Origin: Escherichia phage PNJ1902
Sequence record: OK254197.1
Reading direction: 5' to 3' (one strand)
DNA length: 64,000 bases
Position numbers and translations under genes: made by a program. Shown here piece after piece: positions 3,749 to 43,288 of the stretch; positions within the stretch are counted from its first letter, which is position 1; the number at the start of each line of letters is the position of its first letter. Below the pieces are notes generated by a model. It was not told the DNA's origin. It saw only the letters and a list, made by a program, of their open reading frames with translations, and made no database searches.

Positions 3749-5268
3749 ATATCGCTGGCCTGTTCACCTGTTGAATTTTCAGTTTTGTCTTTCTTAGCAC
3801 GTTTAGGTTGAGCTGGCTTATCCTTCTCAATAGGGATAACGAACTCAGCTTCCATTTGAGATATATCTTCCATTGCTAGGTTGGTAGTGTTATCCATTCG
3901 CAGAGTTTCCCAGTTCATTTTAGGCATAAACTTCACGCTATCAGAAGAACGAGTCTTAACGAAGTCAAACATAATAGCACCTTGACCATTATCAGCTTTT
4001 GCAGCATTAAGATTAGCAGCCATGTCAGCGGAATCAAGAATCCCCTTTGACATACGTGTTCTACCGTCTTGATCGATCTGGTAAGGAGCTACACCAGCCA
4101 CGTTATGTTTCTGGCAGATAGATTTGAAAGACGAGCTAACAACCATCTGTTCTTTCCAGTCATACATATCAATGGTTTTAGAGTCTGGAAGTCGGGTTTG
4201 GTTAATATAGTCCAGTAAAGCTACTGTAACTTTATCTCCATATCTAGCAACTAATTTATTTAGTTCTACGTCAACTGTTGTAATAGACAGCTCAGGGTCA
4301 TAAACAATAATCATAGGAGTATGTAGTTCATATCCCTCTATTAGCTTACTCTCCATATCGTAGAAATCGCTCATCTTAGCCATTGTGTACTGTTTAACGA
4401 AGCTATCGAAAAGCTCTTCACCTCCATTAAACATTCTAGCTCTAGTTCTGGCCAATCTCAACAGAGCTGCACCTTCTAGAGTATTATTACGCATTGCTAA
4501 TGCTGATACACCAGCTAACATGGCTAGATTACGTCTAAATACTTCATGTTCTTTCATCTCAATTGAGAAGTATGGAGCAATATCTCCATTCAAATATTGC
4601 TGAACCTGTATGTTTGAACAGATAATGGATTTACCAGTACCACGCCAACCACCAAGCAGTAACGTTTCTGTGCGAGCTAAACCAATTTGAGCGTCGAACT
4701 CATTACAAATACCAAGAGCGATTAAGTTCAGTTTGGTATCTTCTTCTCTCTGGAAAATACGCATGTTATCTGCGTTGAATACTTTTCCAGTATTCGTTAC
4801 TTTCTCTTCTAATTTTAAGTGAAGGGAGGCAACTCGGTTGAGAATTTCTCCCTGATCCAGCATTGTTAAATCTTGAAGCACGTCTGTTTCTAGAAGCTTC
4901 AGGAATAAATCCTGCGTATATTCGGCTTCTAGGACTTCAAGTGCCTGTTCCATGCTCACTTCTGGAATTTGAGTGTTAGCTAAGACGACTAGAGCTTGAG
5001 AAAGGCGGGCGTTCCTATTAGCTTCAAGCATAAGTGCGTCAATGGACGGCATTGTGTTATATTTTTTATAATAATTCTGGACGGCTTGGTAAATTGAGGA
5101 GAAAGCGTCATTAAAATGATCTTTATGCAGTTTTGAGAATGTTTCCAATGCTATTTGCTTCTGTTCGGAAGCTAGAAGCATCTTCAACACTACAGCTTGC
5201 ACGTTAAACAAGGTCATTCTCCTTTGCACGCTTTCGTGCCTTCTAAATGCAAAAAGGGGAAGGAGCAT
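3745..5268 (-). CDS. DnaB-like replicative helicase
   Basis: 507 aa; Walker A GGWRGTGKS; overlaps primase by 4 nt; RBS GGAGG upstream. Confidence 0.65.
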   Translation of the reverse strand: MLLPLFAFRRHESVQRRMTLFNVQAVVLKMLLASEQKQIALETFSKLHKDHFNDAFSSIYQAVQNYYKKYNTMPSIDALMLEANRNARLSQALVVLANTQIPEVSMEQALEVLEAEYTQDLFLKLLETDVLQDLTMLDQGEILNRVASLHLKLEEKVTNTGKVFNADNMRIFQREEDTKLNLIALGICNEFDAQIGLARTETLLLGGWRGTGKSIICSNIQVQQYLNGDIAPYFSIEMKEHEVFRRNLAMLAGVSALAMRNNTLEGAALLRLARTRARMFNGGEELFDSFVKQYTMAKMSDFYDMESKLIEGYELHTPMIIVYDPELSITTVDVELNKLVARYGDKVTVALLDYINQTRLPDSKTIDMYDWKEQMVVSSSFKSICQKHNVAGVAPYQIDQDGRTRMSKGILDSADMAANLNAAKADNGQGAIMFDFVKTRSSDSVKFMPKMNWETLRMDNTTNLAMEDISQMEAEFVIPIEKDKPAQPKRAKKDKTENSTGEQASDI

Positions 5269-5299
5269 AGCCCCCTCCCCTTAGGTTTAATTTACCAGA

Positions 5300-6067
5300 T
5301 TATTCAGCAGCCGCAGCTTTTGCATCCAGTTTAGCACGCTTAGCGGCACCATCATAGTCCTTAGCAACCAGACCACGACGAGACAGCATAGATTTAACAC
5401 CGCGCTCAGACTTACCAGTTTTCTCAGCGATCTCAGCAACAGTCATGTTAACCAGATCCAGACCTTCTAACAGATCTTCACGAGTTTTAGCACTTGAAGT
5501 TTCCTGTACCGGCATAGCAGCGATACGACCTTCACGAAGCAGGCTCAGAGCTTTACCACGGATCTGCTTGATATTACGACCGAAGTGAGCAGCGATAGCT
5601 TCAATAGTAGCACCAGCAACAACCTGATTAACAAAATCAGTTTCTTCATCCGGAGTAAAGGAACGAACAGCGGCAGCTTTTTCGGTTGGCTTAACAGAAG
5701 CGGTCATTTCCAGACTCAGGATCTTACCCTGTACCTGTTTAGCACCGAACTGACCACCAGCTACAGCAGCAGCGATTTCAGCATAGGTATACTGACCAGC
5801 ATGAGCGTTCAGGAAATCAACCAGTTCAGCTTCCTGCTCAGGAGTCCACGGGGATTTCTGTACTTCGTTAGCTTTTTGTACTTCAAAACCTTCTTTACGC
5901 AGTTTAGAGCCAACAGAGCGAGCAGTAACATCTTTGCCAGTTTCAGCAGCCAGTTCAGCAGCGATAGCAGCTACTTGTTCTTGAGAGATTACAGCAACAC
6001 CCAGAGCAGTGGCTTTTGCTTTCAGAGACTCAGTTACACCTTCTACGTTCCAGTTCAGTTTAGACAT
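5300..6067 (-). CDS. Ala/Lys-rich DNA-binding protein (T5 D5-like)
   Basis: 255 aa, repetitive Ala-rich composition; position between ligase and helicase as in T5. Confidence 0.4.
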   Translation of the reverse strand: MSKLNWNVEGVTESLKAKATALGVAVISQEQVAAIAAELAAETGKDVTARSVGSKLRKEGFEVQKANEVQKSPWTPEQEAELVDFLNAHAGQYTYAEIAAAVAGGQFGAKQVQGKILSLEMTASVKPTEKAAAVRSFTPDEETDFVNQVVAGATIEAIAAHFGRNIKQIRGKALSLLREGRIAAMPVQETSSAKTREDLLEGLDLVNMTVAEIAEKTGKSERGVKSMLSRRGLVAKDYDGAAKRAKLDAKAAAAE

Positions 6068-6842
6068 TATTATTTTTCTCCAATAGTTCTTTAATCGACA
6101 GGATTTCTATCCCATTCGTTTCGGCTTTCTTATAAGATGAGGAAGAACGTTTTGATTCATCCTCACAGATTAGGTATTTGACGTCTTTAGTAACGGATTT
6201 CTTAACCGTATACCCTAGACTTTCTAAATAGTTTGTTGCATCCGTTCTATTTGCAAAATCTTGCAAAGATCCGGTAATACATACCGCGATTCCTTTTGGC
6301 TGGGCAACTAATTCATCTGTAATGATGATATTAGCTTTTGCACCTCTGATACCTGTTGAGAATTTCCACGGTAGTTCGATAACATCCTTGCCTTGTGGGG
6401 AATTTAGCCAGGCTTTATAGTTTTCTCCAGCCTTACCGTCAGCCTTCACATCGTGGAAGCTAGTGCAATTTTGGGATAATTTCTTTGCTGCAACCTCTCC
6501 AATTAGAGGGATTCCTAAAGAACCGAGAACTGAACCAAAGTCAATGTCTCCGCGAACTTTAGTATTTAATTCGCTAATTAACTTAGCGGCAACCTTGCTA
6601 CCCACGGCTCTAACCAAATCTTCTTCGGTTAGGTAAAATAGTTCTGAAATCTTCGTCAGCTCCAGCTTCTCAATAGTTTTTGGGCCAAAGCCCTTTAACT
6701 TCATTTTTGAACAGAAGTTCTCAATTAACTTACTTGATTGCGCTGGACAGTTGGACTTATTCCGACAGAATAATTGTCCGTTGACAAGATCTAGCTTAGA
6801 ACCACAAGAGGGACATTGTGTTGGAATTTCGATTTTCATCAA
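6060..6842 (-). CDS. NAD-dependent DNA ligase, C-terminal part (Zn finger, HhH, BRCT-like)
   Basis: 260 aa; CPSCGSKL...C Zn ribbon, HhH-like GFGPKTIEKL. Confidence 0.8.
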   Translation of the reverse strand: MMKIEIPTQCPSCGSKLDLVNGQLFCRNKSNCPAQSSKLIENFCSKMKLKGFGPKTIEKLELTKISELFYLTEEDLVRAVGSKVAAKLISELNTKVRGDIDFGSVLGSLGIPLIGEVAAKKLSQNCTSFHDVKADGKAGENYKAWLNSPQGKDVIELPWKFSTGIRGAKANIIITDELVAQPKGIAVCITGSLQDFANRTDATNYLESLGYTVKKSVTKDVKYLICEDESKRSSSSYKKAETNGIEILSIKELLEKNNNV

Positions 6843-6869
6843 ATTTCTTCCTTATCAATTTATATAAAT

Positions 6870-6898
6870 ATTATAGCAAGTATTTAAGCATTTAGCAA
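6870..6898 (-). promoter_or_regulatory. sigma70 promoter (T5 early type) for ligase C-part gene
   Basis: RC: TTGCTA-17-TATAAT followed by ATAAATTGA leader. Confidence 0.7.
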
Positions 6899-7041
6899 CT
6901 ACAATTTTAACTAACTTTGCTTACCCTCGCCATAACTTTCTATCCCTCAACTGAATGATAATAGTATATACCTAAGCGGCGAAAATGTCAATAACCACTT
7001 TATAATTCCGATATGGTAGATGGGTAGCAAAGGGTTATGTA

Positions 7042-8013
7042 TTAATCGTATACTCGCTCTACGATGCACGGGATTACACCACCAGCACGAATTACTCGAA
7101 TCTGGCAACCGATCTCTAGATCGAGAGAGTTAATATAATCAACGTTATTAAGAGTCGCTTTAACAATTGTAGCATCATCAATAATTACCGGTTCGAAATA
7201 ACCAACTGGAGTTACTTTACCAGAAGCCCCTACCTGCCATTCAACTTTAGTAAGAGTTGTAATCTCGCCTTCTTCATCCTCTTTAATAGCGAATGCTCCA
7301 CGAGGAAATTTATTAGTCCAGCCTTCACGGAAGAATTTGTTGTTGTCATTAATACGAACAACTTTACCATCCGTCGGAATCCATTTAAAGAAGGAACGCA
7401 CATTAACAACTGTTAAGAAGTCCTCATTCTCTAGCCAGAGCATATCTTTTAAATACGATTCTGTAATACCTACAGATTCAGCAGAACACTGGATACCGTA
7501 TGCAACGAAGATTAGACCACCTTCTCCGATACGTTGTACGAAATCATCACTATCTTTGAGGTTAATAGCACCAGAGGCAAAGTTACGTTTATTTTCTACT
7601 TCTTTTGTAATTAGAACTTCACCAGTGATTTGAGTAGGTACTTTTTGGGAAATCTTTTTAGGGATGTTCAGCAATCTTACGTTGCTTGTGACATCATTCC
7701 CTAGAATGCCATTACCACGAGTTAGTGCTTGAACAAATTCGCCATTAATATATAACAGAGAAATCGCACAACCATCTAACTTATCAGTTTCTACCTGACC
7801 TAATGGATTAAACGGAGGTTTATCTCCACGATTATAATAAACTTTCTGTAAAGAATACATACGATACAGATGTGGAATATCTCCCTTAGGCCCAATCTCT
7901 TCTTCTAACGGAAATCTTTTAATCAGACGATCATATTCTTCGTCAGAGATTAAAGACATGCCTTGATAATATGCTTCTTGACAGCGTTTAATAAATTCTT
8001 TTACATTAGTCAT
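7042..8013 (-). CDS. NAD-dependent DNA ligase, N-terminal part (adenylation + OB fold)
   Basis: 323 aa; adenylation motif KLDG (…TDKLDGCAISLLY…). Confidence 0.8.
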   Translation of the reverse strand: MTNVKEFIKRCQEAYYQGMSLISDEEYDRLIKRFPLEEEIGPKGDIPHLYRMYSLQKVYYNRGDKPPFNPLGQVETDKLDGCAISLLYINGEFVQALTRGNGILGNDVTSNVRLLNIPKKISQKVPTQITGEVLITKEVENKRNFASGAINLKDSDDFVQRIGEGGLIFVAYGIQCSAESVGITESYLKDMLWLENEDFLTVVNVRSFFKWIPTDGKVVRINDNNKFFREGWTNKFPRGAFAIKEDEEGEITTLTKVEWQVGASGKVTPVGYFEPVIIDDATIVKATLNNVDYINSLDLEIGCQIRVIRAGGVIPCIVERVYD

Positions 8014-10548: not shown

Positions 10549-13312
10549 CTAGCTCTGCCATTGCTTCATCATGCATATGTTTCTCCTCATCAGTCATAAA
10601 CTTATATGGGATTGGCATACACTCGATTTTACAATAGGTTCTGTACCAGTCTACAATATTCTCCGTGTTCATATCCTTACCAATACCCATCATACCAAGA
10701 TACATTCTCGCATATTTTGGGTTAGCACTCTGACCTGTTTTAAGGAAGAAATCTTTCTTCTTACCTTTCAGAGCTTCTATGAATGGTTTGATAGTGACAT
10801 TTGAACACTTCTTAATATCTTCCCAGAACATCTCGTGCATTTTATGGAAGAATGCCGCTCGATCATTCGGTTTATCTTTGATATATTGTTCAACGTGCTC
10901 AACTGTTACATCTTTAATAGACTCAAGATGATAGTAGCGAACAAGAAGTAGTTTAGCCTCATACGCATCTGCATGGCGTGGAGCACAATAATCAGGAGTT
11001 GAATACAAAATGGCTTTGATTCGCTCTTCCGTATACTCTTTTCCTGCACCTTCGATAGTTCCCCAGCTTTCACTGAAAATATCAATAGTTGCACCCTGAT
11101 CAAGCAAGTAATAACGTAAGGTACTAGTATAGTTTCTAGATTCCAGCTCTCTACGACGTGCGTATAATTGCTGTGCTAACTCCAGCCAACCTTCATCAAT
11201 GTTATATTGTTCAGAACCTGCGGAGAATCCACTCGTAGATTTATCAATAAAATAATAAATGTTCTGAGCGCCACGGTCGCGCCTGATTGCTTGGAAACGC
11301 ATGTTTGGCGCTTGGTTACTGGTTCTAGTAATAACGAATACGTTATCAAAGTAGTTGAAGTCAACGCCACTCGTTACGGATGGACTACATAATAAGCAAT
11401 CAATTTGTTGATCAATTAGCTCATTAGTTGTGTAATCCAGAATACGTCGAATATCTACATCAGACGTAGAATTTGAGTGGATTTCCTTAACTAGGGCACC
11501 TGTATTACGACGTAATGCCATACCCTTCTCATTCAGTTCATCCGGCCCACAGTCAGATACTAGGATAGATTTCTCACCCATCTCTAGAGAAGTCTGAAGT
11601 GCAACCCAAATACTGGATTCATCCGGGAACTCATAAGCATGAGCTTTTGACAGCATCTTACGGTGATGGTTGTAAAATGCAACCGGTTTATCAAAATCAA
11701 TTAGAGAACCGTAGGCTTCAATCGTCTCAGCACTAATATCACCATCAGATAAGATTACAGTTTTAGCTGTCATGAGGATGTCACGTAGAACTTGAATACA
11801 TTCGCGACGTTGTTTAACAACGGGGGCGAATAATAGATCATTCATTACAGCGTCACATTCATCAATAAAAATGGTGTCTATTTGACCAATAAAACTCTTG
11901 AACTTATGCAAAGAGTGAATAGTTGTGGACATACGGTCAATAGCGCCACGCTTAAAATTAAGCATATCTACAGACTTATCATATTGTCCTGCACTAAATT
12001 TCTTAGCATTTGAAGATACCAGCGCTCTAGTATTTGTAACTGCTAAAAAGTTGCCAGGAAGAACACCTGCGTCCAGCCATTTAGTTACTGCCGTAGTTTT
12101 ACCAGTACCAAGACTTGCCTTAACAAATGTTATATGGCCTTTTGGGGGCACAATGTTAATCTTCAGGTATGGAACTTCTGGTGGAGAATCCACTTCTAAT
12201 TTCTTGAGTGGAACACCTTTCAGATTTAATGGAATCTCACGTTTAGAATTATTAACAAACGCTTTGAGAGCCTGCTTGCGACCGTTATTAAAGTAATCTT
12301 GAATATTACGACTATTATCTTTAGTTGCAATATATTCAGATAAAGCGGGTTTAATCTCACGTTCTAGCCATGCGAAATCAACACCATCCTCTAATGCTCT
12401 ATGGTATAGTTTGGGGATAATACGCAAGTACACCCCATCCTCAGCTTCTTCCAATTCGCTGATGGTTTCTTCTACTTTATCAGACGCGATCTTTTTGCCT
12501 TTAATTTGGTCAAGTAAGGAATAGAATTCCTCTTTAAACTCTCCTCTAGTTGTTTCATAATCAACCAGATTATTGGGCAAATTTACCTTCGAACCTTTAA
12601 CATACACCAGACGTGGCTTACTCTCCGCTTTAAACGGATCTACAATACCATCGCTAAATAAAGGGTCGGCAAAATAGTGAAGCTGGACAGATGAATAATA
12701 AGCTAAGTCGGCAATGTCAAAACCGAATTTTTGCTTACTACTATCGTTGATGGATGTAAATAAGAACTTTAGCTGACCCTGAGTTACCTTGACGTTAGAT
12801 TCTAGCATTAAGTGCATTCGGATACCTGGTTTTAGGCCAGCCGAAGATGATGCATGAGCAATAAACCCTGCATCAAGAGGAAACATGTCCTCACTAATAC
12901 TATTCAACATCTTAATAATGTGGCGGGCCATGCCTACAAGATTAAACTTGTCGTACCCACCGGTATCTAGGATACCATCCACGTCCATAGCAATAATATT
13001 GCTGGGGTTGGATACATTAAAGTTACCTTTCTTACGCCGCACGTTATTTTTAGGTGCAAGACATCGACCTCGTACCGCAACGATATGAGGATCAGACGTT
13101 AAACGTCTCATAAGTGGTAACATTTCGGCAAGGCTTTGCGGGTCATGCTCTTCTATTACATCAAATTTGAAGGGCATAGAGGCTGGTTTACCTTCTGGAT
13201 GCTCTTTCGAGAATCGCTTGGCAAAGGTATAATCCTCCGCTTTGATTTCTCGCCAAATACCTGTTGCTAAATCACGAGAAAATCCGGCGTGACCTTGAAG
13301 AATAGAAAACAC
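10523..13312 (-). CDS. Large SF2-type helicase / putative replication-origin-binding protein
   Basis: 929 aa; Walker A GTGKTT, Walker B-like IFIDECD. Confidence 0.6.
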   Translation of the reverse strand: MFSILQGHAGFSRDLATGIWREIKAEDYTFAKRFSKEHPEGKPASMPFKFDVIEEHDPQSLAEMLPLMRRLTSDPHIVAVRGRCLAPKNNVRRKKGNFNVSNPSNIIAMDVDGILDTGGYDKFNLVGMARHIIKMLNSISEDMFPLDAGFIAHASSSAGLKPGIRMHLMLESNVKVTQGQLKFLFTSINDSSKQKFGFDIADLAYYSSVQLHYFADPLFSDGIVDPFKAESKPRLVYVKGSKVNLPNNLVDYETTRGEFKEEFYSLLDQIKGKKIASDKVEETISELEEAEDGVYLRIIPKLYHRALEDGVDFAWLEREIKPALSEYIATKDNSRNIQDYFNNGRKQALKAFVNNSKREIPLNLKGVPLKKLEVDSPPEVPYLKINIVPPKGHITFVKASLGTGKTTAVTKWLDAGVLPGNFLAVTNTRALVSSNAKKFSAGQYDKSVDMLNFKRGAIDRMSTTIHSLHKFKSFIGQIDTIFIDECDAVMNDLLFAPVVKQRRECIQVLRDILMTAKTVILSDGDISAETIEAYGSLIDFDKPVAFYNHHRKMLSKAHAYEFPDESSIWVALQTSLEMGEKSILVSDCGPDELNEKGMALRRNTGALVKEIHSNSTSDVDIRRILDYTTNELIDQQIDCLLCSPSVTSGVDFNYFDNVFVITRTSNQAPNMRFQAIRRDRGAQNIYYFIDKSTSGFSAGSEQYNIDEGWLELAQQLYARRRELESRNYTSTLRYYLLDQGATIDIFSESWGTIEGAGKEYTEERIKAILYSTPDYCAPRHADAYEAKLLLVRYYHLESIKDVTVEHVEQYIKDKPNDRAAFFHKMHEMFWEDIKKCSNVTIKPFIEALKGKKKDFFLKTGQSANPKYARMYLGMMGIGKDMNTENIVDWYRTYCKIECMPIPYKFMTDEEKHMHDEAMAELGARNDSEE

Positions 13313-31100: not shown

Positions 31101-31271
31101 ATGAAATCAGTTGTAATTATTGGTGTTAACACTCGCGGTATTCGTACTACGAAAACTGTTAAAACATCTAACGTGGCTGAAATTACTACTAACCCTAAAA
31201 AGTTTGATTTCGCCAAAGTCTCGGCAGTTATGACAGAACAATCTTTTAACCAAGCGTTAGGAATGAAATAA
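31101..31271 (+). CDS. Small hypothetical protein
   Basis: 56 aa ORF with RBS GAGGAAG, below 60-aa table cutoff. Confidence 0.4.
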   Translation: MKSVVIIGVNTRGIRTTKTVKTSNVAEITTNPKKFDFAKVSAVMTEQSFNQALGMK

Positions 31272-31714
31272 TGGAAGAGAATATTTTAGATGTTTTGCGT
31301 AGAGCTTTGCAGGATTCTAAGTTTAATGGTTCTGATAAAGAAGTCGCTAAAAGCTACCAGACCATAATCGGGGATCTTCAGCGTATTGATAAAGATTTCA
31401 TCACTTCTGAACAATTTGTGTCTTATCTCAAAGCTCAACTAAAAAGCATTAACCAGATGAAAGCTAAACTTCATGGTCAAGATCTTGATAGTTATAGCTT
31501 GCAGTCTGCTCAGTATGAGTACATTCTAAATAAATGGTTGCAGGAGTATCTGCCTCCTCAGTTATCTGATACTGAGATTCGTAAATACTTTGCAGAATTA
31601 GTTAAGCTAAACCCTGGAATTACAAAGGGTATGCTGATGAAAGCGATTAAGGAAGAATTTCCTGGGCGTTATGATGGCGGTACTGCTGCTCAGATTGCTG
31701 GCGAATTTAATTAA
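31271..31714 (+). CDS. GatB/YqeY-domain protein
   Basis: 147 aa; C-terminal ...MLMKAIKEEFPGRYDGGTAAQIAGEF typical of YqeY family. Confidence 0.5.
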   Translation: MEENILDVLRRALQDSKFNGSDKEVAKSYQTIIGDLQRIDKDFITSEQFVSYLKAQLKSINQMKAKLHGQDLDSYSLQSAQYEYILNKWLQEYLPPQLSDTEIRKYFAELVKLNPGITKGMLMKAIKEEFPGRYDGGTAAQIAGEFN

Positions 31715-36255: not shown

Positions 36256-36333
36256 GGTTCTCAAGCTCATATGGTATGAGCACCCGGCTCATAACCGGAA
36301 GGTACGTAGGTTCGAATCCTCGGGGAGCCACCA
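36256..36333 (+). tRNA. tRNA with CAU anticodon (Met/Ile2), tentative
   Basis: Acceptor GGTTCTC/GGGAGCC (2 GU), loop CTCATAA, TTCGAAT T-loop with weak 3-bp T-stem. Confidence 0.45.
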
Positions 36334-36836: not shown

Positions 36837-36913
36837 GGGGGTGTAATCGAATTGGCATAGGTACTGGACTTAAAATTCAGGTTTTGTGGGTTCGAATCCC
36901 ACCACCCCTACCA
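36837..36913 (+). tRNA. tRNA with apparent UAA anticodon but class I (short variable arm) architecture
   Basis: Acceptor GGGGGTG/CACCCCT, anticodon stem CTGGA/TTCAG loop CTTAAAA, 5-nt variable loop, T-arm GTGGG-TTCGAAT-CCCAC, CCA encoded. Confidence 0.45.
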
Positions 36914-38441: not shown

Positions 38442-38489
38442 AATTACATAAATTGAACTGGAGAAGCAACATGATAGAATAAGATAAAT

Positions 38490-38565
38490 CGACCGTTGGC
38501 TGAATGGCTTAGGCGAAGGATTGCAAATCCTTTTTATGTGAGTTCAAATCTCATGCGGTCGTCCA
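38490..38565 (+). tRNA. tRNA-Cys (anticodon GCA)
   Basis: Acceptor CGACCGT/GCGGTCG, anticodon stem AAGGA/TCCTT loop TTGCAAA, T-loop TTCAAAT, CCA. Confidence 0.6.
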
Positions 38566-38717
38566 ATTTGCTGAAAGAATTGTTTTAACAATTCAGGCAC
38601 GCGTAGGAACACTGTCTCCGTAATTGAAAGATGAGGCACGGTTTGGAGAGGTATGCCGCTACACGCTACGGTGCTAACTCCGTCTAGGTGAAAATCCTAG
38701 TCAGCAATATAAATTTA

Positions 38718-38800
38718 GGGTCGTTAGCCAAGCGGTTTGGCGGTGGACTGTTAATCCATGTCGAAAGACAACGTAGGTTCGAATCCTACACGGCCCGCCA
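38718..38800 (+). tRNA. tRNA with class II architecture (13-nt variable arm, G73) but apparent GUU anticodon
   Basis: Acceptor GGGTCGT/ACGGCCC, 3-bp D stem, anticodon stem GTGGA/TCCAT loop CTGTTAA, variable hairpin GTC-GAAA-GAC, T-arm GTAGG-TTCGAAT-CCTAC. Confidence 0.4.
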
Positions 38801-38902
38801 AATTCTGTGTAGAGTTAAGTAAACCGGTAGCCAACCAGCTATCATTGCTGACATCGAATTCAGCCACAGATACCATTTTCATTAATAACTGAGGAAACAA
38901 GC

Positions 38903-43201: not shown

Positions 43202-43288
43202 GCTGGGTTGGCAGAATGGTTGAATGCACCTGATTTGTAATCAGGAGGAGTAATCCCGTTGCAGGTTCGAATCCTGTGCCCAGCACCA
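43202..43288 (+). tRNA. tRNA with class II architecture (15-nt variable arm, A73) but apparent UGU anticodon
   Basis: Acceptor GCTGGGT/GCCCAGC, 3-bp D stem with 11-nt loop, anticodon stem CCTGA/TCAGG loop TTTGTAA, T-arm GCAGG-TTCGAAT-CCTGT, CCA. Confidence 0.4.

Follow-up and report, generated by a model that had tools for sequence, protein, structure and literature searches.

According to the textbook view, a long variable arm is restricted among bacterial tRNAs to those for Leu, Ser, Tyr and Sec. The asparagine identity set of E. coli consists of the anticodon G34-U35-U36 and the discriminator base G73 (PMC9976931). For serine, the variable arm together with the tertiary shape of the molecule constitutes the main determinant, supported by G73 and the acceptor pairs G1-C72 and G2-C71, and identity is independent of the anticodon; G73 acts in addition as an antideterminant for TyrRS and LeuRS (PMC9976931). 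Slight changes in the geometry of the arm suffice for rejection by SerRS (PMC7590224). In bacteriophage T5 the slot between tRNA-Cys and rna3 is occupied by a tRNA-Asn of class I, 78 nt long and with a variable loop of 5 nt, and it was this T5-type tRNA (T5t17), not a long-armed allele, that was used in the counter-defence experiments on the PARIS system (PMC12409363).

The window analysed here, a stretch of 64,000 nucleotides from Escherichia phage PNJ1902 (OK254197.1), holds in the same slot a different tRNA-Asn, built on a class II-like scaffold. The source of the window is a T5-like phage (Demerecviridae); the 801-nt stretch around the tRNA-Asn gene is 99.6% identical to Salmonella phage vB_SpuM_X5, and 477 phage records were matched. 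ARAGORN finds 21 tRNA genes at 32.5-44.3 kb of the window and places tRNA-Asn(gtt) exactly at 38718-38800 on the plus strand, 83 nt including the encoded CCA. It is the sole tRNA-Asn gene within the window. An earlier note on this DNA had described a class II-like tRNA with a 13-nt variable hairpin and G73, and this description proved correct in every detail (ARAGORN, Rfam and minimum-free-energy fold). The covariance-model check it had proposed gave 59.0 bits with Rfam RF00005 (E=1.8e-12; gathering score 29) over 38718-38797, model positions 1-71, the extra bases being aligned as an insertion within the variable region. The minimum-free-energy fold (-30.5 kcal/mol, z = -2.3 versus shuffles) shows the cloverleaf and, in addition, a hairpin with a GUC/GAC stem and a GAAA loop. 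The anticodon GUU, in the loop CTGTTAA on the stem GTGGA/TCCAT, was likewise confirmed; no alternative fold of 38718-38800 offers a Ser, Leu or Tyr anticodon, or indeed any other.

The hallmarks of a tRNA are intact, namely stems of 7, 4, 5 and 5 bp, U8, A14, G18G19, the T-loop sequence UUCGAAU, U33, A37, a 7-nt anticodon loop and the terminal CCA. Segmentation of the gene, all on the plus strand, begins with the acceptor 5' strand GGGUCGU at 38718-38724, which contributes G1-C72, G2-C71, G3-C70 and U4.G69. The D arm GCCA-AGCGGUU-UGGC (38727-38741; ARAGORN and segmentation) is of class I type, with a 4-bp stem and a 7-nt loop; it has C16 and is without the U16 of E. coli asnT. The anticodon arm GUGGA-CUGUUAA-UCCAU extends from 38743 to 38759, with GUU at 38750-38752 (ARAGORN and segmentation). 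The variable arm GUCGAAAGACAAC at 38760-38772 comprises 13 nt, which the minimum-free-energy fold and covariation resolve into GUC-GAAA-GAC-AAC, i.e. a 3-bp stem, a GNRA tetraloop and a 3-nt 3' tail. It is followed by the T arm GUAGG-UUCGAAU-CCUAC (38773-38789; ARAGORN and Rfam) and, as read from the sequence, by the acceptor 3' strand ACGGCCC, G73 (38797) and CCA (38798-38800), which together occupy 38790-38800.

The upstream neighbour is tRNA-Cys(GCA) at 38490-38565 (plus strand, ARAGORN), separated from tRNA-Asn by a 152-nt spacer. A consensus scan located a sigma-70-like promoter, TTGAAC-16-TAGAAT with TG, at 38453-38480 on the plus strand, a candidate for a Cys-Asn transcript; this region corresponds roughly, by position, to the T5 promoter P14b, annotated upstream of T5.070 and tRNA-Cys. 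Comparison with the annotated T5 tRNAs, another check the earlier note had suggested, was productive, in that T5 turned out to hold the 78-nt class I tRNA-Asn between tRNA-Cys and rna3. As the two genes share this slot, they behave as alternative alleles of one function. The T5-type allele matches 152 GenBank records, and the window type belongs to a long-arm set of 650 records; the type found in phage Bas33, 86 nt in length, is a second long-armed allele. In T5 (NC_005859) the 519-nt ORF T5.069 occupies the interval from tRNA-Cys to tRNA-Asn and runs into the 5' end of the class I Asn gene (5953-6525); it is annotated in other records as a GIY-YIG or T5orf172 homing endonuclease, and the window has only the 152-nt spacer (38566-38717) at this place. 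The swap of Asn alleles may thus be linked to endonuclease homing.

Some further features of the region deserve mention. Directly downstream of tRNA-Asn, at 38803-38875 (plus strand), lies an element also present in T5, where it is annotated as 'rna3, putative tRNA-like RNA'; its termini are able to base-pair (UCUGUG...CACAGA), UACCA comes next, and neither Rfam nor ARAGORN calls a tRNA there. A tRNA missed by ARAGORN was detected by Rfam only (40.3 bits) at 36256-36330 (plus strand); it has a CAU anticodon and the position of T5 tRNA-Ile2(CAU). The tRNA-Leu(UAA) at 36837-36913 (plus strand, 77 nt) has a short variable loop of 5 nt and hence the shape of a class I tRNA, and such short loops occur in 46 of 117 distinct phage Leu tRNAs from the fetched loci. 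An ORF of 147 aa at 31271-31714 (plus strand), upstream of the tRNA cluster, shows a weak YqeY/GatB-tail-like match (PF09424, 25.4 bits, cut-off 27). Its counterpart upstream of tRNA-Arg, matched by position, is T5.081, annotated as 'tRNA amidotransferase', and in BASEL phages a 'recombination-related exonuclease'; the product may be a tRNA-binding protein.

The window tRNA-Asn is by no means an isolated case. As query it matched 650 GenBank phage records, 207 of them at no less than 99% identity; in 534 the match spans 80% of the gene or more, and the sequence is 100% conserved across many phages. Matches include T4-like phages of Klebsiella, Serratia, Enterobacter, Cronobacter, Aeromonas and Citrobacter, and among 60 records sampled along the match ranking the annotation is tRNA-Asn wherever the feature is annotated. 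The earlier note had raised the prospect of a diverged or pseudo tRNA, perhaps absent from relatives; the 650 matching records speak to its presence, and the 207 nearly identical phage copies together with tRNA covariation exclude a pseudogene. For the analysis of covariation, homologues were collected from T5-like phages (Lindwurm, GEC_N7, Bas32, Bas33, JNwz02, 26175IV and Proteus PM135-like contigs) and from T4-like or other large enterobacterial phages (Klebsiella KpV477 and Marfa, Serratia X20, Citrobacter CF1), giving an alignment of 14 sequences. Its cloverleaf is 98.5% paired, with double-sided changes in 13 pairs and compensatory changes in six of the seven acceptor pairs. The variable helix is 100% paired, and three of its four pairs covary with changes on both sides; judged by this covariation, the extra hairpin is real and selected. 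Besides GUC-GAAA-GAC-AAC, the arm occurs as GUUC-GAAA-GAAC-RAC, AUCC-GCAA-GGAU-AAA, GUCA-GAAA-UGAC-UAG, GUCG-GUAA-CGAC-AAG, GUC-UUAG-GAC-AAG and GUC-UAU-GAC-AAU, in all variants with a stem of 3-4 bp, always with a 3-nt tail and usually with a GNRA loop. In most relatives the D stem has 3 bp and its loop 9-10 nt, as compared to 4 bp and 7 nt in the window allele; this class II D arm (3-bp stem, long loop) is present in Bas33, X20, KpV477, Marfa and CF1 and absent from the window allele.

A broader view was obtained by scanning IMG/VR with a pattern that combined a fixed Asn anticodon arm and a fixed T loop at any spacing, a design which misses variants such as the Bas33-type allele. Among the matches listed (120 IMG/VR loci), 33 of 122 had variable regions of 11-18 nt. 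A scan for long spacings returned 68 viral loci with 51 distinct sequences and many different acceptor and D arms; with the further long-armed copies that ARAGORN found in the same loci (all fetched loci), the set amounts to 54 distinct long-armed tRNA-Asn. A GNRA or UNCG tetraloop closes the arm in 30 of the 54, compared to 0.6 expected from shuffles, and in 61 of 75 loci no Asn gene other than the long-armed one was seen. The same scan of 185,579 bacterial and archaeal species, one genome each, produced six matches, two of which were rejected as not being tRNAs; of the four credible cases, two reside in phage-like tRNA arrays on MAG contigs and two are single genes. No copy of the window tRNA-Asn was found in 5,426 complete E. 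coli genomes. Phages thus commonly have long-armed tRNA-Asn(GUU), which cellular genomes lack almost entirely. The Flavobacteriales MAG contig JALVDN010000438.1 (11 kb) bears 23 tRNA genes and a tmRNA at 4061-7952, with both a long-armed and a normal tRNA-Asn. Its tRNAs for Lys(UUU), Ile(UAU) and Glu are unusually long, at 90, 93 and 89 nt, respectively, and the contig has the look of a phage tRNA array that ended up in a bacterial MAG through binning.

Long arms are not confined to Asn. Among the matches listed for the 120 loci, arms of at least 11 nt were present in 8 of 39 Cys, about 6 of 43 Thr(UGU), 4 of 50 Ile(GAU) and 4 of 42 Trp tRNAs, in one Arg(CCU) out of about 90 Arg tRNAs and in the single Phe(AAA) (1/1); none of this length occurred there in Lys, Gly, Phe(GAA), Ala, Gln or Met tRNAs. 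Occasional arms of at least 11 nt were also seen, again among the matches listed, in phage tRNAs for Asp, His, Glu, Pro and Val.

With regard to aminoacylation, the E. coli AsnRS identity set is complete in the window tRNA, with GUU at 38750-38752 and G73 at 38797. The anticodon arm differs from that of E. coli asnT (GCGGA-CUGUUAA-UCCGU; NC_000913) solely by the compensatory exchange of C28:G42 for U28:A42, and in Lindwurm, GEC_N7, Bas32 and X20 the stem is identical to that of asnT, the loops being CUGUUAA or UUGUUAA. In place of the class I body of cellular tRNA-Asn with its variable loop of 4-5 nt there is an arm of 13 nt; the short loop is typical of tRNA-Asn and not one of its known identity elements. 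Class II synthetases such as AsnRS reach the tRNA from the variable-loop side, and for this reason the arm could hinder AsnRS. The arm itself is not of the Ser type, for which at least about 5 bp and at most two unpaired 3' nucleotides would be expected: E. coli serT has C-GACCC-GAAA-GGGUU-C (5 bp, one unpaired 3' nucleotide) and serU has A-GUAGGG-GCAA-CUCUAC-C (6 bp, one unpaired 3' nucleotide), whereas the window tRNA-Asn, with GUC-GAAA-GAC-AAC, has 3 bp and three unpaired 3' nucleotides. The latter arrangement is that of the tRNA-Tyr species, namely C-GUC-AUC-GAC-UUC in E. coli tyrT and GUC-AUUGC-GAC-UCG in the tRNA-Tyr of the window, both with 3 bp and three unpaired 3' nucleotides. The Tyr arm (13 nt, 3 bp, 3-nt tail) is thus present in a molecule that has G73 and GUU instead of the Tyr set A73 and GUA; the Ser-compatible acceptor set G73, G1-C72 and G2-C71 is there as well, as is C11-G24.

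The same distinction is seen across the fetched loci. Of 82 phage tRNA-Ser arms, 77 have a stem of 4-7 bp (58 reach 5 bp or more), and 77 leave 0-2 nucleotides unpaired on the 3' side. In long-armed phage tRNA-Asn, by contrast, 40 of 54 stems measure 3-4 bp, and a tail of 3-4 unpaired 3' nucleotides is likewise seen in 40 of the 54. G73 is found in 48 of these 54 distinct tRNAs and U1-A72 in 32. This first pair is the commonest one in short-armed phage tRNA-Asn (53/75) and is rare elsewhere in the same loci (1/82 phage Ser and 2/49 phage Tyr tRNAs). Since the arm is not Ser-type and G73 is an antideterminant for TyrRS and LeuRS, AsnRS is the only synthetase for which the known identity set is complete.

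Taken as a whole, the sequence evidence makes it probable that the gene encodes a functional elongator tRNA of a T5-like phage which decodes AAC and AAU and most likely receives Asn from the host AsnRS. The enzyme would read the GUU anticodon and G73, while the rest of the body follows a class II-like scaffold. The extra arm is a small, structurally selected hairpin of Tyr/Leu-type orientation. This orientation, together with G73, should prevent efficient charging by SerRS, TyrRS and LeuRS. More speculatively, the arm may alter the surface of the tRNA such that host tRNA-targeting factors, for example immune nucleases, no longer fit.

The last point touches on the question of what the arm is for. 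That it is restricted to phages, recurs in lineages unrelated to one another and comes in a mosaic of alleles among T5-like phages suggests selection, and it is possible, though on the whole doubtful, that a class II-like arm on tRNAs whose identity resides in the anticodon (Asn, Thr, Cys, Ile, Trp) is a general, phage-specific means of counter-defence. The arm would reshape the hinge and variable-loop face so that nucleases, toxins and modification enzymes misfit, with synthetase and ribosome still accepting the tRNA. For the working of such tRNAs as such, the nearest experimental support comes from the equally unusual tRNA-Thr(UGU) at 43202-43288 (plus strand, 87 nt), whose D stem has 3 bp and whose class II-like arm reads A-GGA-GUAA-UCC-CGUU. 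The gene shows 100% identity to the tRNA-Thr(UGU) of phage Bas33 (HildyBeyeler), in whose genome both the Asn and the Thr gene are long-armed alleles only; the Thr tRNA of reference T5 and of Bas32 is of class I and 75 nt long. The Thr tRNA of Bas33 strongly rescues phages from the P2 OLD tRNase (bioRxiv 10.64898/2026.07.10.737580), and Bas33 escapes PARIS when given T5 tRNA-Lys alone (PMC12409363). These Bas33 data imply that class II-shaped versions of normally class I tRNAs function in E. coli, an argument which for Asn is indirect.

As to counter-defence, the class I Thr tRNAs of Bas32 and T4 resist OLD too (bioRxiv 10.64898/2026.07.10.737580), and the notion that the arm is needed for OLD resistance was rejected on account of the Bas32 tRNA. 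For PARIS, an AF3 model of AriB puts the enzyme on positions 40-41 of the anticodon stem and positions 16-17 of the D-loop (PMC12409363); where AriB cuts, the window allele is unchanged from the host (U36-A-A-U-C-C41). The intact host sequence at this site and the arm-independent OLD resistance both speak against the counter-defence idea. The PARIS rescue data themselves were dropped as evidence for the window gene, given that reference T5 holds the different 78-nt class I allele; for the same reason no use was made of the T5 GenBank note that an anticodon swap gives no amber suppressor, which concerns the T5-type allele. Phage Bas34, whose own tRNA-Asn fails against PARIS, was set aside as a test case; its long-arm copy is broken and hence uninformative. 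In Bas34 SelmaRatti (MZ501103) the long-arm allele is annotated as tRNA-Asn at 12598-12681, where ARAGORN found no tRNA; its acceptor strands, GGGUCGU and the 3' ACCCGCU, fail to pair, and to judge from the sequence the gene is probably a deletion chimera. The broken copy could explain the published need of Bas34 for T5 tRNA-Asn in order to escape PARIS.

It is rather unlikely that the arm is a neutral leftover from a class II ancestor, tolerated and of no advantage, as would result for instance from a tRNA-Tyr converted from GUA to GUU by A36U and A73G. Such a descent would account for the GUC/GAC stem of 3 bp and the 3-nt tail, identical in E. coli tyrT and the tRNA-Tyr of the window, for the anticodon loops of Tyr and Asn being one base apart (CUGUAAA and CUGUUAA), and for the full class II D arm in most relatives. 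Body similarity, however, yields no clear Tyr ancestry; nearest-neighbour comparisons of the body, tried as a means to decide between Tyr, Ser and Asn ancestry, were discarded as they returned noise-level signals only. Moreover, the arm occurs in many unrelated lineages (51 distinct pattern matches, 54 in all), with tetraloops far in excess of the shuffled expectation (30/54 versus 0.6), its stem is maintained by compensatory changes, and the form is almost absent from cellular genomes. This spread over lineages, the tetraloops, the compensation and the rarity in cells point to selection rather than drift.

Improbable is also the scenario of the earlier note, in which SerRS would recognise the arm together with G73 and G1-C72/G2-C71 and charge a meaningful fraction of the tRNA, resulting in Ser at Asn codons. 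Serine identity does not depend on the anticodon, and precedents exist in the nev-tRNAs (PMC3333845) and allo-tRNAs (PMC5389517). Some serylation is conceivable because G1-C72, G2-C71, C11-G24 and G73 are all present, and because some relatives combine 4-bp arms, G9 and a D arm like that of serT (UGGCUGAGCGGUUUAAGC). Judged by these features, relatives with a 4-bp arm, G9 and G73 could be partly serylated. Himeno et al. reportedly found in 1990 that a single base pair added to the variable stem of tRNA-Tyr leads to Ser acceptance, a precedent on which the possible serylation of the relatives leans. Against the proposal stands that G73 alone is not Ser-specific, as it forms the E. coli Asn set together with G34-U35-U36, and that the 3-bp arm with its 3-nt tail resembles that of tRNA-Tyr, which SerRS rejects. 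The Ser arms of E. coli and of the same phages are longer with tails of 0-2 nt, and tiny shifts in arm geometry suffice for rejection (PMC7590224). U1-A72, present in most long-armed Asn tRNAs, is almost never encountered in Ser tRNAs, and the anticodon arm stays like that of the host tRNA-Asn. Finally, in most such phages, as in the window, this is the sole Asn gene, so that proteome-wide Asn-to-Ser errors would hit the phage itself; insertion of Ser at Asn codons is thus not supported. A non-translational role, be it as a decoy or sponge for tRNA-targeting nucleases or tRNA-binding host factors or simply as a decaying gene, is very improbable: competition by viral tRNAs has been raised as a possibility by Belukhina et al. 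(PMC12409363), T5 has several tRNA-like stable RNAs in its tRNA regions and the Bas34 copy of the allele is broken, yet tRNA hallmarks and identity set are all intact in the window gene, its sequence is 100% conserved in many phages, and Northern blots on a sibling viral tRNA revealed replacement of the cleaved host tRNA and no inhibition of the nuclease (bioRxiv 10.64898/2026.07.10.737580).

A literature search on long variable arms in phage tRNAs gave no relevant paper; the annotation as tRNA-Asn is already found in many records, and it is the class II-like build and the near-restriction to phages that appear to be undescribed. The long-armed tRNA-Asn is the common allele in T5-like phages and extends to T4-like and many uncultured phages. 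As most T5-like phages have an allele other than that of T5, experiments with T5 tRNA-Asn are not automatically transferable to them. If the tRNA is charged with Asn, AsnRS and the remaining translation machinery tolerate a class II shape, and a natural scaffold for the engineering of arm-tagged tRNAs would be at hand. The long-armed form is, furthermore, a candidate for a shape-based escape of phage tRNAs from tRNA-cleaving immunity (PARIS, OLD, PrrC, retron effectors).

In comparison with known systems, the window tRNA shares with E. coli asnT/U/V/W the loop CUGUUAA, an anticodon stem one compensatory pair removed, G73 and the encoded CCA; it departs from them by the 13-nt arm in place of the 5-nt loop AUGUC, by G1-C72 in place of U1-A72, and by different acceptor, D and T arms. 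With E. coli tyrT it has in common the 13-nt variable region, the GUC/GAC stem of 3 bp with three unpaired 3' nucleotides, and G34 and U35; stem and unpaired nucleotides recur in the tRNA-Tyr of the window. U36 replaces the A36 of tRNA-Tyr and G73 its A73, and the window allele has a 4-bp D stem. tRNA-Ser, both of E. coli (serT, serU) and of phages, agrees in G73, G1-C72, G2-C71 and C11-G24, and a serT-like D arm is found in relatives only; in contrast, the stems of the serT and serU arms are 5-6 bp long and leave a single 3' nucleotide unpaired, and GUU is not a Ser anticodon. The nev-tRNAs (PMC3333845) and allo-tRNAs (PMC5389517) likewise join an extra arm to an anticodon outside the Ser/Leu/Tyr set, but they retain Leu or Ser identity elements, and their misacylation was shown or argued, whereas the Asn identity set of the window tRNA is intact and misacylation is not indicated. 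T5t17, finally, coincides with the window allele in the slot between tRNA-Cys and rna3, in anticodon, G73 and CCA, and differs as a 78-nt class I tRNA with a 5-nt loop and the anticodon-stem mismatches G27.A43 and U30.U40, which adjoins a homing-endonuclease-like ORF.
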